DNA of 64,000 bases, from contig NC_134026.1 in NCBI RefSeq assembly GCF_964204645.1, positions 519,950 to 583,949 of the forward strand, in the 5' to 3' direction. Within the stretch, counting starts at the first letter, position 1; each line of letters starts with the position of its first letter. Shown here one piece after another: positions 1,401-64,000 of the stretch. The position numbers were made by a program, and so were the translations under genes. Under the pieces are notes generated by a model. It ran no database searches, had not been told where the DNA came from, and saw only the letters and a program-made list of their open reading frames with translations. The DNA comes from Tubulanus polymorphus (Eukaryota; Animalia; Nemertea).

Positions 1401-2760
1401 CTACGAGGCGTCGCTGATAACACCCACTAGAGCCGGTCTGATCGTACGACTATGTAATTTATAACCTATTTTACTGACAACAGCGACCGTACCGGGCTCT
1501 TTATCCGGTGATGGCTGCTGGAATAAAGCTTCGTGAACGTAGGGGTCGAATTTTTCACCGGCCGATGGATTTATCTGCTCTAAACCGTGACGCGTAAAAA
1601 CTTTATGTAATTGCGTATCCGTCATAACGAGTCCTTCGTATAAATTCTTCAAGTGCGGATTCGAATTAGTGATCTCTTCTTTCGGTATGCTCTCCGTCGC
1701 TTTACCTAAAATATCGGCGACTTCCAGTAAATCTTTACAGAATCCTTGGATTCCGAATATTTTCGCGTCGTCCGCTTGTTTTTTCATTCTTTGACGAACG
1801 TTTTCCGTCTCGGCCAAAGCTCGCTTGTATTTATCCTGAAATAAGAAATCATCCACAGTTCGTAGTTAAGTCAAACAGAATGAAAAAATGAAGCAAAACT
1901 TCATAAAAATAGTTTCTAATAACCTCAACTTCTTTAATGCTATTCATGAGTTTCTCTTTTTCTTCTGTTAAAGTCTGTTCTCGCTCGCTGACATGTGACT
2001 CCGGTGCCGCCTCCGATGACGCCGAATCTGTCGATGTTTGTTCTGATTTTTCATTGCTTTCGGTCGCCGTGGTGCTGTACGAATAACACCCCAGTCTTAA
2101 ATATATAAAATCATTCGTTCAAGTCTGATTTAATATAATATACGACAACATTAAATTCTGTGAAGAACGACCAACAGATGTTCATTGTTGAAATTTGGAA
2201 GTTATTTTGTTGACATTTATCAAATTATTTCTTGTCAACGAGATGATAAATAGCACTTTAATTAAAGCTAGCGTATTCTATTCATCTTTACAGGGAGTCA
2301 TATTTGCCCAAGTTCTATCTGAAATACTAGAGTAAGGTTGGATCTAATTGGTGTCACTGTCAACTACGATTCCATTCTCTCTGCCTGACTGATTCATCAG
2401 CGATATGTTTGTTTCTCACACTCGCCGCAGTCTCTTTCAGGGTGGATTGGAAATCTGATGTTAGCCACCAGTAGAGTTTGTTTGTTATTCCCAAACTGGA
2501 ATAAGTTCAATCAAACTTGCTTATGTAATACCGCCTCCGATGACTGATCGTAATAAATTCAATTTGCAATTGGATTTGATTGCCGGGTGACTAAATACGG
2601 TGATTATTTGAGATTTAGGCCAGTTTTAAATGTCATTTATGAATCAAAAATATCGTTTATTTCGTGAGAAACATTTTTATTACCTCTGTGAATGTACTAA
2701 AGCAGCCCTAGAGGCAGTTATGCTTTTTAATAGATTTGCACATGCACGAATTGCAGCCAT
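1401..2760 (-). CDS. GRPEL1: Mitochondrial GrpE nucleotide-exchange factor for mtHsp70, 3 exons, 227 aa
   Basis: Exons 2684-2760, 1924-2095 and 1401-1835 join in frame with GT-AG junctions (684 nt). N-terminus MAAIRACANLLKSITASRAALVHSQR resembles a mitochondrial presequence. GrpE motifs YKRALAETENVRQR, FCKDLLEVADIL, KFDPYVHEALF and GYKLHSRTIRPALVGV are present. Confidence 0.96.
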
Positions 2761-13968: not shown

Positions 13969-14924
13969 TTAATCCGTATCTGAATTACTGTTATTTGTCT
14001 CTGTGAATATCAAATTTAGATCTTGTCGAGGTGGGGGTAGAGCTGGAGGTGACGCCGGAGTAGAACTGATATTCAGATTATCGATTAACAAACTCAGATC
14101 CTGTACGTGTAAGTTCTCCGCGGTTCCGCCCTGAGGTGTATTATTCGGCGCTATAGGCGAACTGTCCGTACTCGTCTTTTCCGTTTTTGTATTTCCACCG
14201 ACGGCTTGACGCGTAGGTGGCGTCTTTGTTCCCGATTCCTCCCCGTACGCGCCCTCGCGTTCCGATTCCTGCAACGCGGGGACTATCTTGATTCCGGCGA
14301 TTCCCTTTTTCTCGATCGTTGCGAGATCTCGTTTAACTCGTCTCCGTCGCGACGGGTCGTTCCTCCGAACTTGGATCATATTCTCCAAATCGATTATGTA
14401 CAAAAATCCGGCAATGAGAAGTTCGAAAACTTTTTCCTCGTCTTTCACGTAGCGATCTTCAATTTCCATACTGGTTCTCTGATCGTACTGCCACCAGCCG
14501 TTTCGACCCTCGTAGTACCACTGGTAACCTTCGTGATGCAGCGACAAATCGCGCCATAAATCATCGGTATGAACAAGATTCGGAGTGTTCAGATAATCGA
14601 CCGGTATCTCCTGGCGACATAGAGCGCATCTCTTGCTCTGATTCGCTACGCCTTTTATACACAGGAAACAGAATATATGCGTACACGGCAACTGAACCGG
14701 GTGACTGCAGATCTGAAGACAAACCGGACATTCCGGGATGATATCTACAATAAATACAAATACATATCTTCTAAAAACTTTACTCTCTACTTAACAAGAT
14801 GAATCCAAATTGAGCAGTTTATAGACAGACTATTTTTACCTTGTCCTAGAGTTTTCGTTAATGTTTTACTATCCGTTGATTCTAACTGGTCGTCGAGTGA
14901 TGAATTCACATTTCTAGAAGCCAT
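13969..14924 (-). CDS. RNF146: PAR-dependent E3 ubiquitin ligase RNF146/Iduna (RING plus WWE), 2 coding exons, 286 aa
   Basis: Exons 14840-14924 and 13969-14744 are in frame (861 nt). RING CPVCLQICSHPVQLPCTHIFCFLCIKG...CALCRQ; WWE QWYYEGRNGWWQYDQRTS...LIAGFLYIID...RRRRVKRD. Confidence 0.95.
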
Positions 14925-36863: not shown

Positions 36864-39800
36864 CTATTTTTCGTCCGACATTTTTTCAGGCGAGCCGATC
36901 GTTTTCGAATCACCGTTTTCTTCTCCCGATTGGACTTTCTGTTGTAGTTTCTTCAGCAGCTCGGAGGCCGGTGTATTTAACGCGAAGCCCGGTCCGTACA
37001 TCAGCTCCGGGTGCTCAGCTAACGACAATCCGTTTGGCAGGACTACAGCTTGAGCAGGTAAAAACGCGTTGTTATCAACGGGCCATGTAAGGAATGGCTG
37101 GCTAGGAAACAATGCAGCCGCGCTGGCTGCAGCTGCCGGGAACTGTAGCTGAGCCATCAAATTGGCAGCTGCGGCTGAAGCTTGCGCAGCTGTTAGACTG
37201 GTGACAGCGTCGGGCAATGACATGGATGTATTATTAGGAGACGTTTTTGACGATGTATTTTGCGAAGATGGTTTAGCGGGGCTGATTTTCTGCGGTGTTG
37301 ATTTCTGATTGGTTTGTTGAGCTTGCTCTTGTTGCTGCGCGCGTTTCTCTTCAGCTTTTTTCTTCTGTCTCAACAGATGGCGCTCTTTAACTTTGTATTC
37401 GAGGGTTGAATGAGGGACGCCGTAGTAACTACCCGCTCGATGTACGCTCATTTCTCCGCGTTGCACCGCACGTACCGCCTCCATTAACAATGCATTGTTA
37501 TATTTACGATATTGGCCGCGTTTTGGACGGGTTTTCTTGACAGGTTGTTGTTCGGACCCTGTATTGCTGCCAGTCGACGAGTCTTTATTATTTGCGTCGG
37601 ATTTACGTAGTTTTTTCGAAGGTGAAGGTCCCGCGGAGCCGTTCACCGCCGTGCCCGAGGTGGCGCTACCGTTGCTATTAGACGCGTGTTGTTTGTTACC
37701 GTTATTCAGATAGTGTTGTAAGTTCGGATAAGTTTCGTTCGAACCGACGAAACGCGATCGAATTTTCTCGGTGATCGTTTTTGTGATTATTTCTTTCAGA
37801 GTGTCGTTTATACGATTATTAGACGACGAGCCGGATCCGGCGACGTCTGCCGATGTATCAGACGCCGGTATCGACGACGCCGGACTACTCACCTGCTCGT
37901 CTGAGATTCTGTGTTGCGGTTTATAGGACGGAATCTTTAGTTCAACTTGATGATGATGATTGAAATTATTTGAAACGGTTGATTCGACCGTTTCCACATC
38001 GTTACTGTCGCCGTTTACGAGTAATTTACTCTCGATTTCCATTCGCTGCTCGATCATTTTCCGCGCGATCTCCGGTAAAATCGAGGCCTGCGACGCCGCG
38101 TCGGATAAGTCTAATTTCGGGATGAATCCGAGCGCGGCTGCTGCGGCTGCCGATTCACCGATTAACGCGGCTAGATTCATATCCATCCCGACGAACGATT
38201 GCAGGTTGTGTTTGCGTCGAATCAATTCGAGTTTTTTCTCCCATGATTCCGATTCATCGTCATCGGTTTTATTATTGGTCCCGTTTTGTTGGACGATCGA
38301 CGGCGATTCTTTACGGTTGTTATTACCGGGACTGATCGACCGGCTGCTGGCCGCTGCCGCGGTGCCGTTTTGTAACAGGTCACCCATCGTTAGATTCTTG
38401 TTTAAGCGTAATTGTTGCGCTTCCATGTCGAGTTTATATATTTTGTTACGTAAAGTGGAGCGTGGAATCCCGTAGAGAACGGCCGCACGACGAGTTCCGA
38501 TTTTACCATCTCTGATTTCCTGAACGGCGGCCTGTAGTTCAGTATCGGTGTAATTACGCTTCGATCCATCCCGCTTCAGTTTCCTAAATAAATCAACAAA
38601 ACCAAATATTAGACAATCTTAGAGGATAATCACTTCCGAAAAATGCAACTAAAAATTAGCTAAGATAAAAACCCTGTAGACACAAGTTTTAGGTTGAGAA
38701 GATACACGATATCTGATGAATCCCACAATAATTCGGGTCACTCACTCAATGCCACACGTTTGATTTGTCACAACACCTGATGATGTCTGATAGTCTTTAA
38801 CTGAAACATTGCTCAATTTCACTCAAGAATTTACATTTGTAGCTGAATTATCGTGGGATTTCTCTTGTACAAGTTTTAACTAGACCTTATGTAACCGGGT
38901 CTTAATGTACAAATCAATTGCAGCCTTACAACAAACATTAACAAATCAAGGTTGTGGGTAAAACCCTTTACTATACACCTATGAAAGTGCTGGACAAAAT
39001 TCATGGATTTTTGAAAACATATTTTCAACTTACTCAGTCTTTTTAACATGCGGTACTTTCAGTTCAATGGAGTTTTGGCCTTTTTGTTGAGGTATATTGA
39101 CGTCAGAAGAAGGAGATCGTGGAGCAGTTGAACTCAGGTCCAAAGGTTGATTATCATCACCATTCTCTCGTAAAAAATAATTAGGGAACGTTATTGGAAG
39201 ACCTGAAATTAGAACAAAAAGAATTTTATCAACAGAATGATAATAGCGGTATGAATAGGCATATAACAGGTTCAACTAGTCCAGTTTGTCAAAAATATTC
39301 ATCTTATTCAGGGCTCTTACAGATCAGGGAATCTAAAATTTCCTGATATTTCCCTGAAACTGGGGCAAAAATTCACTGATCGAATTATAAGATATCCTCA
39401 GTTGGGGCTGTCCCTTGTTATATTCTTGATCTGTAAGAACTCTGTTCATTTATTCAGTTATTCTTCATTTTATTTCAATGTTTTGGGGAAACTAAATTCA
39501 TAAAATAAACTAAATTTTGAGTCAAAACTATGACACATAACTGTAGAAGTAGGAGTATGAAAAATCCTAAAATCTAAAGATTTATTCTAGACCTCAGAAT
39601 TTAAGTAGATTGGTAATTTCAGTACTGTAGGTACCGGTATAGTTCAATCCATGTAATGAACGAGAACTAAGACTAATACTATTATCGCATTCATCAATCA
39701 AATTCCTTCAGATAGATGGCAGCACTAGCGGACTAGTCAAAACTAAATTTGATCATTGTGACCTGTAAATTGTGCACATAAACTGATGATGCAGTAGTAA

Positions 39801-56900: not shown

Positions 56901-57593
56901 TCATGAAGTATTCAAAATGCCATGATCCGCACAAACCAAAAACAGTTCAAGATTAAATGCCCGAAATGGTAATCATTGCGTACTACAATAGACTCTTCCC
57001 TACTCAGTTTAAAGTTGTATCGTGAATATATCATTGATTTCACTGAGGATCAGGGGAATTGAAAGTTTTTCTAGAAAATGTGAAATTCGAACCAACTTTA
57101 GAGCGGTAGAATCATGGACTCACGACTGATGATGGCTAATAGTCTTTAGCCGAAACATTGCGCAAATATAAACTCTTCTATTCAAGTTTCTCGCGTTAAT
57201 GGACTCTTTTGTTTTGGAGTCCATGATGGAATCTACTGTACTAAACTTAATGCGCACAAAGCTGAATAGATATCAACATTTGCTTGTTTTGATTTAGCTC
57301 TATCAGAGTTTCCAAAGATTTATCAGTGGTAATTTCTAATGTAAAGATGTTTTTAAGAGTGACATTATTCATACACGTACAAGTATCATTATTATCTACG
57401 ATGATTACATATTACATTTATCCCGTTATCGATGAGTATTAGCATCATTTTTACTCTAAAAAGTTAAGTTTCATCTCTCAGGATTCTCATCACGCATGCG
57501 CGCGCAGGACACATACTGCGTTGTCACTACGAGACACAGGTAACCGTTCTAAAGCAGTGTTTTATTTTTCATCCAGACAGAATTTCACTCCTA

Positions 57594-60500
57594 TCACGAT
57601 ATCGTATTCGGTAAAATAAACGTCTTTATCGAACTGACTCTTTGCGGCCGACGACTCAATCCTAGTTTACGTTTTCTAGTTTGATTCAAATTGTCTCTGT
57701 ATAGTTTAAGAGTGAGTTGTAAGCTTTGTACGATTCGTGCTACGACTTGTCCGATCTTTTCCGGCGTCGCCTTTTTGTCGCTTAATACTGTCCAATCTTC
57801 AGCGGAAACTCCACCAGGAACCTGAACAAAACAACATCACATAGTAAATTGTCATTTTTATATGCATACTCCATCTGCTTCTTCAGGTAAAACAGGCTGG
57901 CACCACTTTGAATGAACAAAGTCTACTGTCCTCGACACCAAACTTTCTTTTTTTGGAAGTAACGTGCAAATCTATCATTTGAAAACTTACTTCGAATATT
58001 TTTTCCGGTACGTTAAACTTTCCGCCTGCTGCACCACCAGTCACACGAATAGGTATAACATTGTGATCGCTCCAAATGAACTGTTCAGCTTCGTGAGCCG
58101 CACCGGGACCACCTTCGGAAAAACATCGAAAATCAATTATTACATCACAGCAATATCAAAGACATGACGGATGAACTGATGTATTCTCAATGGTGAAAAT
58201 AACGACGGATGAACTGATGTATTCTCAATGGTGAAAATAACGAATTATCCAATAATTGATGATACCTAAAGTTTTCTATTCTGAAAGTATCGAGACCTCA
58301 TAGGCGTCCCCAGGAATTTTCATAGGGGGTTCTAATTAGCATCAATCCAGTATCCAAGCACAATGTCTGGTGTTTGGTGGGCCTCCCCCAAAAAACTTTT
58401 TGAAAATTGGAGGCTTTAGAGACATTTCCAGGCTCTAAATGAATCATTTAGACGTAAAAGACTAGTTAAATTTGCAAGAAAAATCTTGAACATTGATTAC
58501 ATAGTATCTTGAGAAGTTAGTTATCTCGAAAAGGGGGTGCGTTCGCTACCCCGCACCCCCCTTGGGGACGCCTATGGATATATGTAAATCTCATCTACAG
58601 AGAAACAGTAATGATTACTTTAAATTATTACTGTTTCTCAAATCTCAAAAATGTCAGATTATCAAAAACTTTTGATATCATCAATTGTGGAATCATTCAT
58701 TTTCATAGCACATACCTTCTATTAATATACATATTTCGAATACTCGAGATACAATAGTTTCTCTTTCTCTCACAGAATCACCACTAAATGCTGTACTTCC
58801 GTACGGAACAATCTGAAAGGTTTTATCTCTATTCTGTCTGGCTCTTTCCGTACAATCCTACAACAAATATTCATCTTAACTATGACATATGATAAAACAC
58901 GTGATAGATCACCTGATATGTTACTCATTTACACTCATTGACACTCATTTTACTTAAGTATTTCATAACTACTTTAAACATTCGTAAGTTTCATAGTCCT
59001 GCAATGCAGCAATCGAAAGGTTTATTATATTCCCACCAATCGTCCCAGCTTTTAGCAGTATGAAAACAAGGAGAAACAACAAATATTGCAGATGTGAAGT
59101 AGGTCTGACCTTTTCATCTCTGACCGGTAAAACGTGCCATGTCGCCGGTGTCTTCTTCTCTTTTTGTCGTGCGTCGAAGAAGCTCTGACCGACGACATCT
59201 CCAATTCCGTAAAACCCACCGGTTACTATAGATACGTTATCCAGTTTAGCCAAGTTCTCACCAATAGCTCTACAATCAAACAGTGAATAAAGAATCAGCG
59301 AAAACTGTCAGTTTAAACAATCAAACAGTGAATAAAGAATCAGCGAAAACTGTCAGTTTAAACAATCAAACAGTGAATAAAGAATCAGCGAAAACTGTCA
59401 GTTTAAACAATCAAACAGTGAATAAAGAATCAGCGAAAACTGTCAGTTTAAACAATCAAACAGTGAATATAAAATCAGTGAATACTGTCAGTTTAAACAA
59501 TCAAACAGTGAATAAAGAATCAGCGAAAACTGTCAGTTTAAACAATCAAACAGTGAATATAAAATCAGTGAATACTGTCAGTTTAAACAATCAAACAGTG
59601 AATATAGAATCAGCGAAAACTGTCAGTTTAAATGATTCAGAATCCATACTAACTTGCAAATAGCTTCAGACTGTGGATAATAGAACCTCGTTCCACCAGA
59701 TATATAAATACAACCTTCAGGATTTACAGCTTTCTTTAAAAGAGATACCTACAAATATATGGATAAGGTGCTCATTAGTCAAGTATCTAGAAACCTGTAA
59801 GATTGTTTGGTATTCAGGGGTAAGTTGCACAAAAGTTGGTCAAGTTAAACATTGGATCTATTATTCACTGGTTTAAACTCTTACAAGTCTTGGGTAGTTT
59901 CTTTAACTGACTTTTACGCAACATAGTCAGCTTTTGCCCGAAAATTAAGCATTGAGAATGAAGCTGAGTTTGTTCACATCGCCAGCCAATCATGAACTGT
60001 GTCATTCCTGTGTGGCACTGTTGACAGAACCAGAAGTGCAAGTATATTCGTAGCCGGCAGTGAATGTGTTTTAACATGGATGTTCATAAGTAACTTACAG
60101 CTTTAGTGATTTTAGCTTCATTCACTTCCTCACTGACCATATCTCCACCGGTGGGATCTAACGCTCGAGCCACGCGACATACGAGAGAATCTTCATAACC
60201 CTCATACCGACAATTCTAACAAAAATCACAAACACAATACATTCATTATCTTTATAGCGAAACTTTGTCAGGTTGGCCATTTGTATTTCACTTGCTTTTT
60301 CCCTGACTTGATCTTTCTAAGAATCCTATCAATTAACACAGTAAAATATGTAAGATATAAATGGAAACTGTTTGATTTTAGATGGAATCTAGCAATCTCA
60401 ACAAATTTCCCTGACGATTTTTAGTTCTTTACTAAATTCCCTGATTATTCCCTGAATCTTTTAAAGAAAAGAAATCCTTGACTTTTCACTGATTTCCAGG

Positions 60501-63500
60501 TAAGTGGCCAGCCTGATCTGTTAAAGAAATCAACAATAAATTGTTAAGGATACCTCAAGTGTACTGGTTCCGATTAACATACTCATCCAACCGGGCATAC
60601 AAAACTCTTCATACTTTAAAGGTACAACTCGTTTCCTGTGCTCACAATAGAAAACCTAAAATGACAAACATGTCTTACGATTACGATTTTATTTACACTC
60701 CAACCATTTCCATGGTATATGGAGGAAAACTATTACACATGTATATACAAATATTTACAAAACAACACTGAGTGAAGTGAATAAAATTTAGAGAATGAAA
60801 ACGTAACAAAATATATATACATCAACTATTTACAATACTACCGGTATATATATACTATTGGAGGGATCTATATACATCTAAGCCGGTCTTAATGAATAGC
60901 ATCAGTAAGGTGCTGCTATAATAGTGCGGTGGATAAACCGGTAACTAAACTAAAATTTAATACGTACTTGTTGTTTAGAAGTTTTTGAAGCAGCGAATGC
61001 CCTCGAAAGCACGAACACCACGGCTCCGGCTTCATCAGCTCGTTGTTGGAAAAGTTGTAAACGGTTTTGAGTTCCAATACTGCATGTAGATTCCTGACTT
61101 ATTGGTGACAGGGGAATATCTGTAATTAAACATGGCAGAAATATCAGAATTCTCTGAATTCTCTGACTCTGAGCACAGTTTCAGGATATTCAATAATTAC
61201 CATTGTCATCGCTGAGTTGAGTTTCGCGAGTGTCCTGTGAAAATAACGGCTCCTGACTGTCCATTTCAGTATCAGCATCGAGCATTTCCGTCGAGCACCA
61301 AACATCATAACCTTTCGCTTCAAACAATACCTTCAGTCTTTGACCCTGTAAGAGATAAATATAAACAGGTTTACCTCGGTATCTATTGAAATCGAACTGT
61401 CAAAATTCATTCTAGTTCATATTCGACACATTATGAAATATAAGGCATTGGACTTTCGCTTTGGACTCGACCAATTCCAGAATCCTCTTTGTTTCATATA
61501 GAATACGCTCTACCTGTCTAGGAAAGGCAAAATCTGTAAACCTGATAGAAGCGGCCGGTAGAGAGTTTGTAATCTGTAAACCTGATAGAAGCGGCCGGTA
61601 GAGAGTTTGTAATCTGTAAACCTGATAGAAGTGGCCGGTAGAGAGTTTGTAAATTGTAAAACTGATAGAAGTGGCTGGTAGAAAGTTTGTAATCTGGAAT
61701 CAATATTTCGGAACTGGGATACATTCGATCAAAACCTGCCTTATAAACCTTGGTTCACTTCTGAATTTTAGGTAAAATTATTCGCCACTATTACTTACAA
61801 ATTCTTTCTGTTCTGGGTGTACTGATACGACTACTAGAGGTCTCATCGGTGGCTCCGTATTTGCATAGGCAGGCGAAGATACCCAACTGTAGCGAACATA
61901 CGACGGCTAAAAATAACAATATCATAGAAACATATTTAACGAATTTGTTGTAAACTCACGCGCAGGAAAATCATTAGAATCAGAACGAGAAAATGAATTC
62001 AAATAATGAGAATGAACTAAATATCGCAGCATTAAAATAAGATCCCAATTAAGCTGTTATTATCGGTAAATGTAAAGGATTAGGTTGAAGGACATCGATA
62101 GAATTGATTTTATTCGTGATGGGTTTTCGTTCGACGTGTCGCGTTAAGCACTAAAAACTAATACTAATAATAATAATAAGATTGATGAGAATTAAGATTC
62201 CGTTAAGATAGAGTTTCAAATACATAAAGTCAATACGGTATTGGTATTATAGAAATTATCACACATAAAATTATCACCACGGGAAGAGCAGAATTGATGG
62301 AATAGATTTAAATCTGAAGATCTGGAAGACATTGATGTAGGTTCATGAATCCAGAACAACATTTAAACCGTATTATGATTATGATTAGCAGCTCACTAGC
62401 GTGGGTTTCGAGTATTCAGTTCAGAGCAACTGCAGTTTAAATGATGTTATGGAGATCTAATTTGGTTAAATTCTAAATGACTCATTCCCAGCACTGAAGA
62501 TGCTTATCAATCACCAATTCTGATTTCGCCCCCGGCTGAGAAGAAATCAAAGATTATAAAATTCCGGTATTGTTCGGGGTTTTTTTTTACTCATAGAATG
62601 TTAAAAATCAGTGAATGAAAAATGACCAGCACAACAGGACAGATATTATCTATGGCTACCTTACGAGTATGCGGCGATAATCCATCCTGAAATAGGTATC
62701 ATCAGGAATAAATTACCACACGGCAACATGAAACAATACGGAAGAGAGGAGACGAAGGGCGGTCGAGGAATTACATCAAACGTCAGTCAGAATATCGAGT
62801 AATAATAATAATAATAATATTCAGATGAATGTAAAATACCTGTTTTTTCAAACTTGTATGTTTTTTACCGGCTTTCACGTATTGTTTATAACGTTCAGCT
62901 AATTCTCGTGATACGACTTTATGAGTTTCTTCGTTTGAATTTACATCCTGACTGCAACCGGTGTGATTTTGAGCTGTAAAATGACGAACGATTAGATTCC
63001 GTTCAGTAATGAGACCACAAAATGTCGGCTGTTGACTAACAACCATCAAACTGAAATGCTTCAACTTTTTTAACTTTAAAATTCATGTTTTGCTTTTAAC
63101 CCTTGCAGTGCTGACTTATCAACACCCTATAGTGCTGGAGATAATTTGAAAATTTTGAAAAATTCCACCCTAGTGTGTTGAATTACAGGAGTACCACTAT
63201 AGTGCGTCTACACCGCGGCGCGGTGTATCGTTAGTTACTAATATTTCACTATGTTTGACAGGTGCTGCCATCTTTCAATAGAGATAAAAACTAATTAGTA
63301 CTAGCAAAATCCATCACCGATTCATACACCGCACTGCGGTGTAATCGCACTGAAAGGGTTAATATGAAGAAATTCTGCTAAATCAAATCAAAATTTTCAT
63401 CTCGGATATATATTCTTACAAGATCTCATCAAAGATATTTTACCTTTAATGCTTCTATTTCTCTGGTCGTTCGACCATTTGATAAACTGCGTCGTGGCAA

Positions 63501-64000
63501 ACTGAATAGCAAGACATTTCGGGGGCCAAACATCTCCAAAATTCACCGGTACTATCACTTTATTCAGAACATCGGCTAATTTCACCTGAAATTAAAACCA
63601 GACACAATTTGCAACATTTTATTCTTTATTGCGAATAGATCGACCTAACTATTCTTTTTAGTAACGAAAATCTAAATTTTGACTCAGGCCATTCCAAAAA
63701 CATGATTCCACACTAAATCCTGAATATCAAATTTTCTTTAACAAGATTGAACTCCATTATATACAAATTTTATAAGAAAAAAACCCCAAAATTTATGTAT
63801 TAAATTCATTTTTAAAAGACTCGAGTTTCAGACTCTCTCTAGACCAAAGTCAGGCATGGACAAGTACATAAATCGACAATGATTTTATCATCTATTTTCC
63901 ACGTTAGAGTCTGGCTATGATAATATCAAATGTTCTATTTTCCTACCTCGCGATTGGTCCATTGAGTTTCACCGTAACTCTGAGTCACGAGTGGTACGAA
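57594..64000 (-). CDS. Multi-exon TIR-TIR-SLOG (LOG/SMF-DprA-like) protein; 5' end lies beyond the window
   Basis: Exons >64000-63947, 63585-63444, 62973-62840, an uncertain micro-exon at ~62651-62677, ~61886/61906-61799, 61345-61201, 61119-60968, 60655-60554, 60215-60099, 59748-59654, 59269-59110, 58857-58716, 58112-57991 and 57821-57594. TIR1: FVPLVTQSYGETQWTNRE|VKLADVLNKVIVPVNF...WPP. TIR2: LVVVSVH..KEFGQRLKVLFEAKGYDVW...VVFVLSRAFAASKTSKQQVFY...RVVPL. SLOG: CIYISGGT, IGENLA...IVTGGFYGIGDVV, RERETIV...ICILIEGGPGAAHE...VIPIRVTGGAA. Confidence 0.85.
58299..58576. mobile_element. MITE (cataggcgtcccca TIR)
   Basis: cataggcgtcccca ... tggggacgcctatg perfect 14-bp inverted ends; intronic. Confidence 0.7.
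59273..59632. repeat. 45-bp minisatellite (~8 copies) filling an intron
   Basis: Unit caatcaaacagtgaataaagaatcagcgaaaactgtcagtttaaa; occupies nearly all of intron 59270-59653. Confidence 0.93.
60676..60900 (-). mobile_element. Second, shorter 3' fragment of the LINE family at 31119-31819
   Basis: Shares ttacactccaaccatttc...gtatatggaggaaaa and ggagggat.tatatacatcta...atgaat with 31142-31358; short (taatcg)n-type tail. Confidence 0.7.
61531..61696. repeat. 39-bp tandem repeat (~4 copies)
   Basis: Unit aatctgtaaacctgatagaagcggccggtagagagtttgt. Confidence 0.9.
63100..63358. mobile_element. piggyBac-type MITE with TTAA target-site duplication
   Basis: ttaa|cccttgcagtgc ... gcactgaaaggg|ttaa; internal inverted tacaccgc / gcggtgta motifs. 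Confidence 0.75.

Follow-up and report, generated by a model that had tools for sequence, protein, structure and literature searches.

We report here on LOC141898375, an animal gene on the minus strand at one end of a 64,000-nucleotide stretch of the genome of the nemertean Tubulanus polymorphus (contig NC_134026.1, positions 519,950 to 583,949; the whole stretch is called the window below). We will show that it is a real spliced gene whose product joins, in a single chain, two tandem ubiquitin-like domains (UBLs), two TIR domains (TIR1 and TIR2) and, at the C-terminus, one domain of the SLOG type. We will also argue that the protein may be a SARM1-type NAD+-cleaving enzyme, allosterically regulated by nucleotide binding to its SLOG according to a logic like that of ThsA, a reading to which we assign a probability of roughly 0.45. 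The family is ancient, shared from sponges to starfish and spiders, and apparently uncharacterised.

Within the window the gene runs from 64000 to 57594 as 14 exons with GT-AG ends, which join into one open frame of 575 amino acids with the terminal stop, at 57594, as its only one. A window exon used as query retrieved XP_074640330.1 (P0001, 943 amino acids), the LOC141898375 protein, with 100% identity. Without an optional exon of 27 nucleotides, the gene model equals residues 378-943 of this protein letter for letter; with it, the model matches RefSeq isoforms X1, X3 and X4, the exon being absent from RefSeq isoform X2. The window lacks codons 1-377 and includes TIR1 in its C-terminal half only; residues 1-377 were taken from the RefSeq protein. 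A tblastn search with four orthologues matched the window exons in order.

The splicing is seen in two sets of contigs, called X2 (study P1) and X4 (study P2), which come from runs not labelled as RNA and behave as spliced RNA, while carrying no expression level, tissue or strand information. Each set skips 11 of the 12 introns of the 13-exon form, with CT..AC joints, and the twelfth joint, 61906/62840, is adjacent in a 3181-nucleotide X4 contig (record positions 1817/1818). This single contig spans the 3′ region and the exons of the SLOG and TIR2, skipping the 27-nucleotide exon, and its loose end runs into the TIR1 exon at 63444; in X2, the TIR1 part and the TIR2-SLOG part are found on two separate contigs. 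An earlier note on this DNA had proposed a single spliced, long-resident animal gene with two TIRs and a SLOG in one chain. The contigs, the introns and the RefSeq protein support the former claim, and the joining of TIR and SLOG exons in one X4 contig the latter. Its layout of TIR, linker, TIR and SLOG over some 14 exons was right as to the exons and their order, while TIR1 is only half contained in the window and the two upstream UBLs had gone unseen.

The AlphaFold2 model of the full protein, based on a 137-row alignment of the family, has a mean predicted local distance difference test score (pLDDT) of 78.7, with 551 residues at 90 or above and with disordered linkers. Residues 78-246 form two homologous repeats (cross-match E 3e-13) of ubiquitin-like fold, for which Foldseek returns ISG15 and di-ubiquitin (E ~1e-5). 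The second repeat of an orthologue gives Z 7.5-7.9 to the USP7 UBLs, to ubiquitin and to talin; since the fold of the orthologue fragment used to isolate it was dominated by its TIR half, the UBL subfamily is left unassigned. Pfam and profile scans gave no ARM or SAM match in the protein or in family members, the N-terminus being a tandem ubiquitin-like fold, and profile scans gave no SIR2 match; all ordered regions are UBL, TIR or SLOG, with no effector domain otherwise. The chain ends in a short motif, S/T-x-K/N-T-x-I-L (57609-57632, minus strand), which is shared by nemertean, mollusc and priapulid members, SLOG-less ones included. Of 139 tails compared, 17 carry it, and the rest of the proteins concerned is free of it; it is possibly a docking site.

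TIR1 (residues 320-436) scores above the Pfam TIR_2 cut-off, and its best profile match in the PDB is the SARM1 TIR (E 9e-7), with the ISY-R motif, the second-strand Asp and the W...E motif aligned; at the sequence level, Glu395 falls on the SARM1 catalytic Glu. The fold comparison with the SARM1 TIR gives Z 16.5 (root-mean-square deviation, rmsd, 2.2; 127 residues aligned). In the 137-row alignment Tyr328 is kept in every row, Asp354 and Glu395 in 136 each and Trp391 in 135, and TIR1 is the most conserved domain, with 53 of 112 columns conserved at 90% or more. Judged from sequence, TIR1 carries a SARM1-type active site. TIR2 (residues 505-680) is identified as a divergent TIR by profile matches and secondary structure, including a weak profile match to the MyD88 TIR (E 0.03). 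Its catalytic position is of the Gln622 type in 122 rows and Glu in 6, and Tyr625 and Arg629 are invariant, so that, on the alignment, TIR2 is a pseudo-TIR without the catalytic Glu.

We now turn to the C-terminal domain. Blocks of ten residues between 681 and 910 have pLDDT values of 85-98, and residues 683-914 match PpnN (Z 17.3, rmsd 3.0, 197 aligned), TM1055 (Z 17.3, rmsd 2.4, 155 aligned) and the SLOG of BcThsA bound to 3′ cyclic ADP-ribose (3′cADPR; Z 16.7, rmsd 2.7, 170 aligned). On this model the domain is a SLOG fold, as the earlier note had deduced from SLOG/LOG motifs that are indeed present in the sequence. By sequence it is nearest to LDcluster4/TIGR00725, with the Tubulanus protein below the Pfam cut-offs; its STALD score is 17.8 bits against a cut-off of 24, and the cut-offs of both STALD and LDcluster4 are missed. 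When 54 family members were scanned at E 0.1, LDcluster4 matched 46 (best 1.5e-10), STALD 35 (best 1.2e-5) and Lysine_decarbox none. TM1055 is also the best PDB sequence-profile match (E 1e-4), Foldseek relates the domain to choanoflagellate TRPM2 (E ~1e-5), and its language-model neighbours are SLOGs of conflict systems, all below 0.9, which we treat as a lead only.

In BcThsA, 3′cADPR is contacted by G289, S290, L326, Q359, R371, K388, G399 and E403 (bioRxiv 10.1101/2022.05.07.491051), and S288, R371 and E403 have been described as family features (PMC7272460). With model residue 707 placed on ThsA 283, the structural register puts S712, G713 and G714 on ThsA S288, G289 and S290, while R812, G831 and E835 correspond to R371, G399 and E403 by motif and spacing; HMMER aligns the same three residues with the Arg and the GGxxGTxxE motif of TM1055. 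The Tubulanus SLOG keeps 13 of 13 scored pocket positions. G713, R812 and E835 are jointly kept in 104 of the 120 gap-free rows, from sponges to echinoderms (17 gapped rows were excluded from the 137), and the columns of the glycine loops belong to the best kept of the SLOG. The domain is predicted to bind an adenine or ADP-ribose nucleotide. The LOG motif, PGGxGTxxE, includes a Thr that is kept in TM1055 and in stand-alone bacterial relatives; the 137 rows have Ala here in 93 cases and Thr in 4, with Ala832 in Tubulanus. Ala is also found in three aligned non-animal or unnamed fused proteins, and a hairpin insert is common to the fused forms. This exchange of Thr for Ala leans towards a sensor rather than a LOG-type enzyme.

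The first homology search returned 144 proteins (143 beyond the query). Names, read from 120 of the 144 matches listed, cover nemerteans, echinoderms, hemichordates, molluscs, annelids, a priapulid, chelicerates, Trichoplax and sponges, and further searches added tardigrades, a tick and a mite. The matches listed include no name of a vertebrate, insect, nematode or cnidarian, which, with many matches unnamed, is no proof of absence. The UBL-UBL-TIR1-TIR2-SLOG layout occurs in sponges, echinoderms, hemichordates, molluscs, annelids, a priapulid and chelicerates, and the Trichoplax and tardigrade records are partial. Using domain profiles built from the family itself, the full five-domain order was found in 138 of 262 proteins, isoforms included. 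A quick SLOG tree of 95 rows groups largely by host lineage, which fits vertical descent; as the tree is a quick one, with long branches in its non-animal group, we claim neither a donor nor an order of events.

Some relatives of other layouts are informative. An MMETSP transcript (P0224, 674 amino acids) has a UBL-TIR-SLOG arrangement whose TIR-SLOG unit aligns to TIR2-SLOG (28% over 328 columns), and its TIR has Glu at the position where animal TIR2 has Gln. This one sequence suggests that the TIR adjoining the SLOG was once catalytic. The same protein has an extra C-terminal domain and an N-terminal Gly motif suggestive of myristoylation. Two Logan/ENA proteins of ~1300 amino acids (P0239 and P0244) are channels according to Pfam (Ion_trans) and contain the same SLOG subfamily at ~665-865 with its pocket intact. 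We consider them candidate SLOG-gated channels, in which this subfamily would have a sensor-like setting. By eye, their SLOG splits a region that looks cyclic-nucleotide-binding-like but has no Pfam match. Two further proteins, P0250 and P0253, have tandem SLOGs of the same subfamily, in which the glycine loop is followed by Thr or Val and the hairpin insert is missing.

On the bacterial side, four metagenome loci (1.0-7.3 kb) carry stand-alone bacterial-type SLOGs that are 28-31% identical to that of Tubulanus, and there is no TIR match in the sequenced DNA around these genes. They are of the LDcluster4 type (L001:2759-3391, L002:1116-1748, and one each on L003 and L004), and the gene on L001 lies ~1 kb upstream of a glgC-like gene. 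A GTDB scan with the stand-alone SLOG P0241 gave no relative among 161 candidate stretches, and a search for shorter proteins with the SLOG region of Tubulanus gave 36 matches, mostly exon-sized fragments.

In the regulated-enzyme mechanism that we propose, the tandem UBLs would cluster or recruit the protein, clustering being suggested because TIR NADases need to oligomerise. TIR1 would cleave NAD+, most likely to canonical cADPR and ADP-ribose (ADPR), canonical cADPR being the product of most active animal TIRs (bioRxiv 10.64898/2026.04.20.719644). The SLOG would bind what TIR1 or some other TIR produces, or else a nucleotide akin to such a product, and set the activity of TIR1, to which the dead TIR2 would couple it. 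With no further effector domain in the chain, the output would consist of the TIR1 product or of the loss of NAD+. This would be the ThsA logic of a SLOG-gated NADase, with a TIR replacing SIR2. The activity of TIR1, its product, the SLOG ligand, the direction of regulation and the biological role are all things that we infer, and nothing in the analysis shows the immune or cell-death role that had been suggested earlier. A bolder version, which we hold to be rather unlikely, would have a soluble animal receptor and amplifier whose SLOG binds cADPR or an isomer, supplied by a Toll-like receptor (TLR), by SARM1 or by the TIR1 of the chain itself, and turns TIR1 on. A ThsA-like effector step would then date back to the common ancestor of sponges and bilaterians and derive from a eukaryotic TIR-SLOG unit that is older still, while in other eukaryotes the SLOG subfamily in question would gate ion channels.

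It is important to point out that a number of observations weigh against SLOG-regulated NAD+ cleavage. PpnN, TM1055 and ThsA are tied as structural matches, and the molybdenum cofactor (Moco) carrier and LOG proteins follow within ~2 Z; at the level of the models, fold alone cannot separate a sensor from an enzyme. The assignment of the Arg and Glu to ThsA is one of motif position, not a residue-level superposition. Gly714 stands where ThsA has Ser290, and ThsA K388, L326 and Q359 have no mapped counterpart. That the UBLs serve in clustering is guessed from their fold (Z 7.5-7.9; scores up to 0.85). Among Glu-bearing animal TIRs, only 12 of 61 were active in Escherichia coli (bioRxiv 10.64898/2026.04.20.719644).

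The family itself also supplies points of this kind. Nine of the 120 gap-free rows lack E835 or R/K812, and 5 further oyster-type rows lack E835. Two proteins have no SLOG yet end in the family C-terminal motif, and 16 hand-picked full-size unnamed proteins have a TIR of the TIR1 type with Glu and neither TIR2 nor SLOG. The TIR of these 16 (P0184 and, within the range P0191-P0246, the others) shares 46-62% identity with TIR1; one of the proteins also has a fused ANTH domain, which may be a gene-model artefact. Judging by these sequences, the SLOG is dispensable in some lineages; with the SLOG eroded or lost while TIR1 stays, TIR1 would be the core of the protein and the SLOG an accessory. These losses in several lineages and the lack of an effector domain speak against a closed loop of the producer and sensor that the earlier note placed in one chain.

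Several other explanations have to be weighed. In a two-step enzyme, TIR1 would make ADPR or cADPR and the SLOG, as a nucleosidase of the LOG/PpnN type, would cut this product, so that the signal is erased or a second one arises. The top structural matches do include the nucleosidase PpnN as well as LOG proteins (Z 14.6-15.3), the LOG-motif Arg and Glu are kept, SLOGs have been proposed to be able to cut ADPR derivatives (PMC9503650), and invertebrates have dedicated erasers, Raw being a TIR-fold cADPR hydrolase (PMC13455253). However, the GT-motif Thr is mostly Ala, ThsA uses the same Arg and Glu as a non-catalytic sensor, and the subfamily also occurs inside channels, and we find this scenario unlikely. 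Somewhat more doubtful is an active TIR1 NADase with a SLOG that, together with TIR2, is merely structural or dimerising and has no regulatory ligand. The erosion or loss of the SLOG while TIR1 stays would agree with this, as would the stable dimer formed by the ThsA SLOG (bioRxiv 10.1101/2022.05.07.491051), whereas the retention of the pocket across the 104 rows and of the glycine loops counts against it.

A comparably low likelihood is given to a non-enzymatic scaffold, in which both TIRs would serve Toll-type or some other signalling as adaptors and the Glu would be kept for structure. An adaptor role has been hypothesised for conserved invertebrate TIR proteins (PMC6321704), and the scaffold would fit the weak resemblance of TIR2 to MyD88, the 49 of 61 Glu-bearing animal TIRs that gave no product in E. 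coli, and TLR2, which keeps the Glu and is inactive (bioRxiv 10.64898/2026.04.20.719644). Here, on the other hand, the entire SARM1-type pocket is nearly invariant, beyond the Glu alone, the closest structure is an enzyme, and the fusion partner is a nucleotide-binding fold. An artefact, with exons of two genes put together or a bacterial Thoeris locus as contaminant, is extremely improbable: apart from the public runs not being labelled as RNA, no support for it was found, and the spliced contig, the RefSeq protein, the 143 further homology matches, the GT-AG introns and the host-lineage grouping of the SLOG tree all contradict it.

The protein had originally been described as a one-protein Thoeris-like module. 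It does resemble type I Thoeris (ThsB TIR and ThsA SIR2-SLOG) in combining a Glu-bearing TIR with a SLOG close in fold to that of ThsA, the pocket Gly, Arg, Gly and Glu being kept by register or motif. Type I Thoeris is, however, a two-gene prokaryotic anti-phage operon and not a single intron-rich animal gene, and ThsA has a SIR2 domain where the Tubulanus protein has neither SIR2 nor another effector. In addition, the Tubulanus SLOG is by its scores of the LDcluster4 and not the STALD type and carries the extra hairpin, and the protein adds two UBLs and a second TIR that is dead. The protein falls outside Thoeris, because there is no effector domain, the SLOG is non-STALD and the nearest bacterial relatives found stand alone. 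In Thoeris the SLOG has to switch on an effector; with TIR1 as the sole candidate enzyme here, the layout is nearer to ThsA, a SLOG-gated NADase, than to ThsB plus ThsA. Type III Thoeris, with several TIR proteins and a SLOG effector, includes ThcB4, the best NCBIfam match of TIR1 (E 3e-16); the 59 bits are far under the ThcB4 cut-off of 220, and the system is bacterial and multigene. Its SLOG is also described as non-STALD, a likeness by description only (PMC13276650).

SARM1/TIR-1 is the closest solved relative of TIR1 by both profile and fold, with the Tyr, Asp, Trp and Glu aligned, and is likewise an animal protein of several domains, among them a regulatory one that binds nucleotides, a role predicted here for the SLOG. 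SARM1 has an ARM-SAM-SAM-TIR order, while here UBL-UBL, a pseudo-TIR and a SLOG take the place of ARM and SAM. The Raw/Olrn-1 cADPR hydrolases use two TIRs to form one shared catalytic pocket. The LOG, PpnN, TM1055 (TIGR00725, SLOG cluster 4) and Moco carrier proteins have the same fold (Z 14.6-17.3), and the Tubulanus SLOG differs from them in its fusion to TIRs, in the GT motif changed to GA and in the hairpin insert. The N-terminal SLOG of TRPM (MHR1/2) is another animal SLOG fold tied to ADP-ribose sensing, but belongs to another subfamily, whereas the Tubulanus SLOG is soluble and joined to TIRs. By analogy, the working mode is most likely closest to those of ThsA and SARM1, the protein being a member of neither family.

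A catalogue of conserved invertebrate TIR proteins absent from vertebrates (ecTIR-DC) was published earlier (Gerdol 2017, cited in PMC6321704). Its entry 15 (Trichoplax H2 TrispH2_005040, 865 amino acids, a single annotated TIR) fits the expected placozoan orthologue by size and annotation only, and the catalogue figure shows no SLOG or UBL and gives no function. A full-text literature search found no paper on the function of the UBL-UBL-TIR-TIR-SLOG family, the Burroughs 2015 paper that defined the SLOG families lying outside its reach. That survey may mention eukaryotic fusions. SLOG is listed among the domain abbreviations in Fig. 3 of a study of cADPR-producing eukaryotic TIR proteins, the figure taking in a mollusc, rotifers, an echinoderm, a lancelet, a fish and protists; the accessible text of that study does not discuss a SLOG-bearing architecture, and a family member may already have been shown there to make cADPR (bioRxiv 10.64898/2026.04.20.719644). 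The remark in the earlier note that no characterised animal protein is known to have this architecture is to be qualified, a eukaryotic TIR plus SLOG arrangement being seemingly drawn in that figure.

The domains are known and the family is databased as uncharacterised; the novelty lies in the arrangement and the function. Animal TIRs were recently shown to make cADPR, and the Tubulanus-type protein is a concrete candidate for a soluble reader or regulator. With the TIR1 active site and the SLOG pocket both intact in sequence, the Tubulanus copy is a good one to assay, and the natural SLOG-eroded and SLOG-less variants offer built-in controls. If the enzyme is ligand-gated, a design principle of bacterial immunity, the SLOG-gated NADase, would prove to operate in invertebrates.

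The exons of the window, all on the minus strand, are described here in the order of transcription, with their support in brackets. The first, 63947-64000, is cut by the window end and encodes TIR1 residues 378-395, including Trp391 (63959-63961) and Glu395 at the catalytic position (63947-63949; frame, RefSeq, tblastn, and the joint 63583/63945 in X2 and X4). The end of TIR1, to residue 435 and with a WPP motif, lies in 63444-63585 (contigs, frame, tblastn), and the helix after TIR1 and linker sequence in 62840-62973 (contigs, frame, model). The optional in-frame exon of 27 nucleotides, 62660-62686, adds nine linker residues (frame, X4 contig, RefSeq isoforms). Linker and the first strand of TIR2, from Arg509, are encoded by 61799-61906 (contigs, frame, tblastn), followed by the first helix, second strand and beginning of a disordered insert in 61201-61345 (contigs, frame, model). 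The TIR2 core is in 60968-61119, with Gln622 (60968-60970) at the Glu position of catalytic TIRs (contigs, alignment, tblastn); Tyr625 and Arg629 are in 60554-60655 (contigs, alignment), and the end of TIR2 with the helix leading into the SLOG in 60099-60215 (contigs, frame, model).

Exon 59654-59748 holds the SLOG strand 1 loop, Ser712-Gly713-Gly714 (59692-59700), equivalent by register to ThsA Ser288-Gly289-Ser290 (contigs, structure register, tblastn). The TGG glycine loop follows in 59110-59269 (contigs, alignment), and the hairpin insert of the eukaryotic fused forms, with Arg812 (58762-58764), in 58716-58857 (contigs, alignment). Exon 57991-58112 holds the GPGAAHE motif with Gly831 and Glu835 (58090-58092) and the TGGAA loop (contigs, HMMER, alignment, tblastn). 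The last coding exon, 57594-57821, contains the SLOG end, a basic tail, the conserved C-terminal S-I-K-T-F-I-L motif and the stop codon (contigs, frame, tail comparison), and 3′ untranslated sequence follows in 57148-57593, the part reached by the spliced X4 contig. Pfam gave no matches on 12 single exons of the gene, the pieces being too short. A candidate extra exon at 59865-60083 was dropped, as the contigs skip 59745-60096.

The introns contain repeats at 59272-59632, 61531-61696, 58166-58243 and 63130-63360, comprising tandem repeats (units of 45, 40 and 38 bp) and a very high-copy interspersed element. The genes in the rest of the window, between 1401 and 53800, look ordinary. Named by eye, they are a GrpE-like gene (1401-1865, minus strand), a uridine-cytidine kinase-like gene (~6.9-10.7 kb, plus), an RNF146-like RING-WWE gene (13969-14790, minus), a cytochrome P450 gene (~23.9-26.4 kb, minus), a pipsqueak/LCoR-like gene (36864-38618, minus) and a MORN-repeat gene (~52.5-53.8 kb, plus). 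The WWE domain, present in the RNF146-like gene, binds ADP-ribose.

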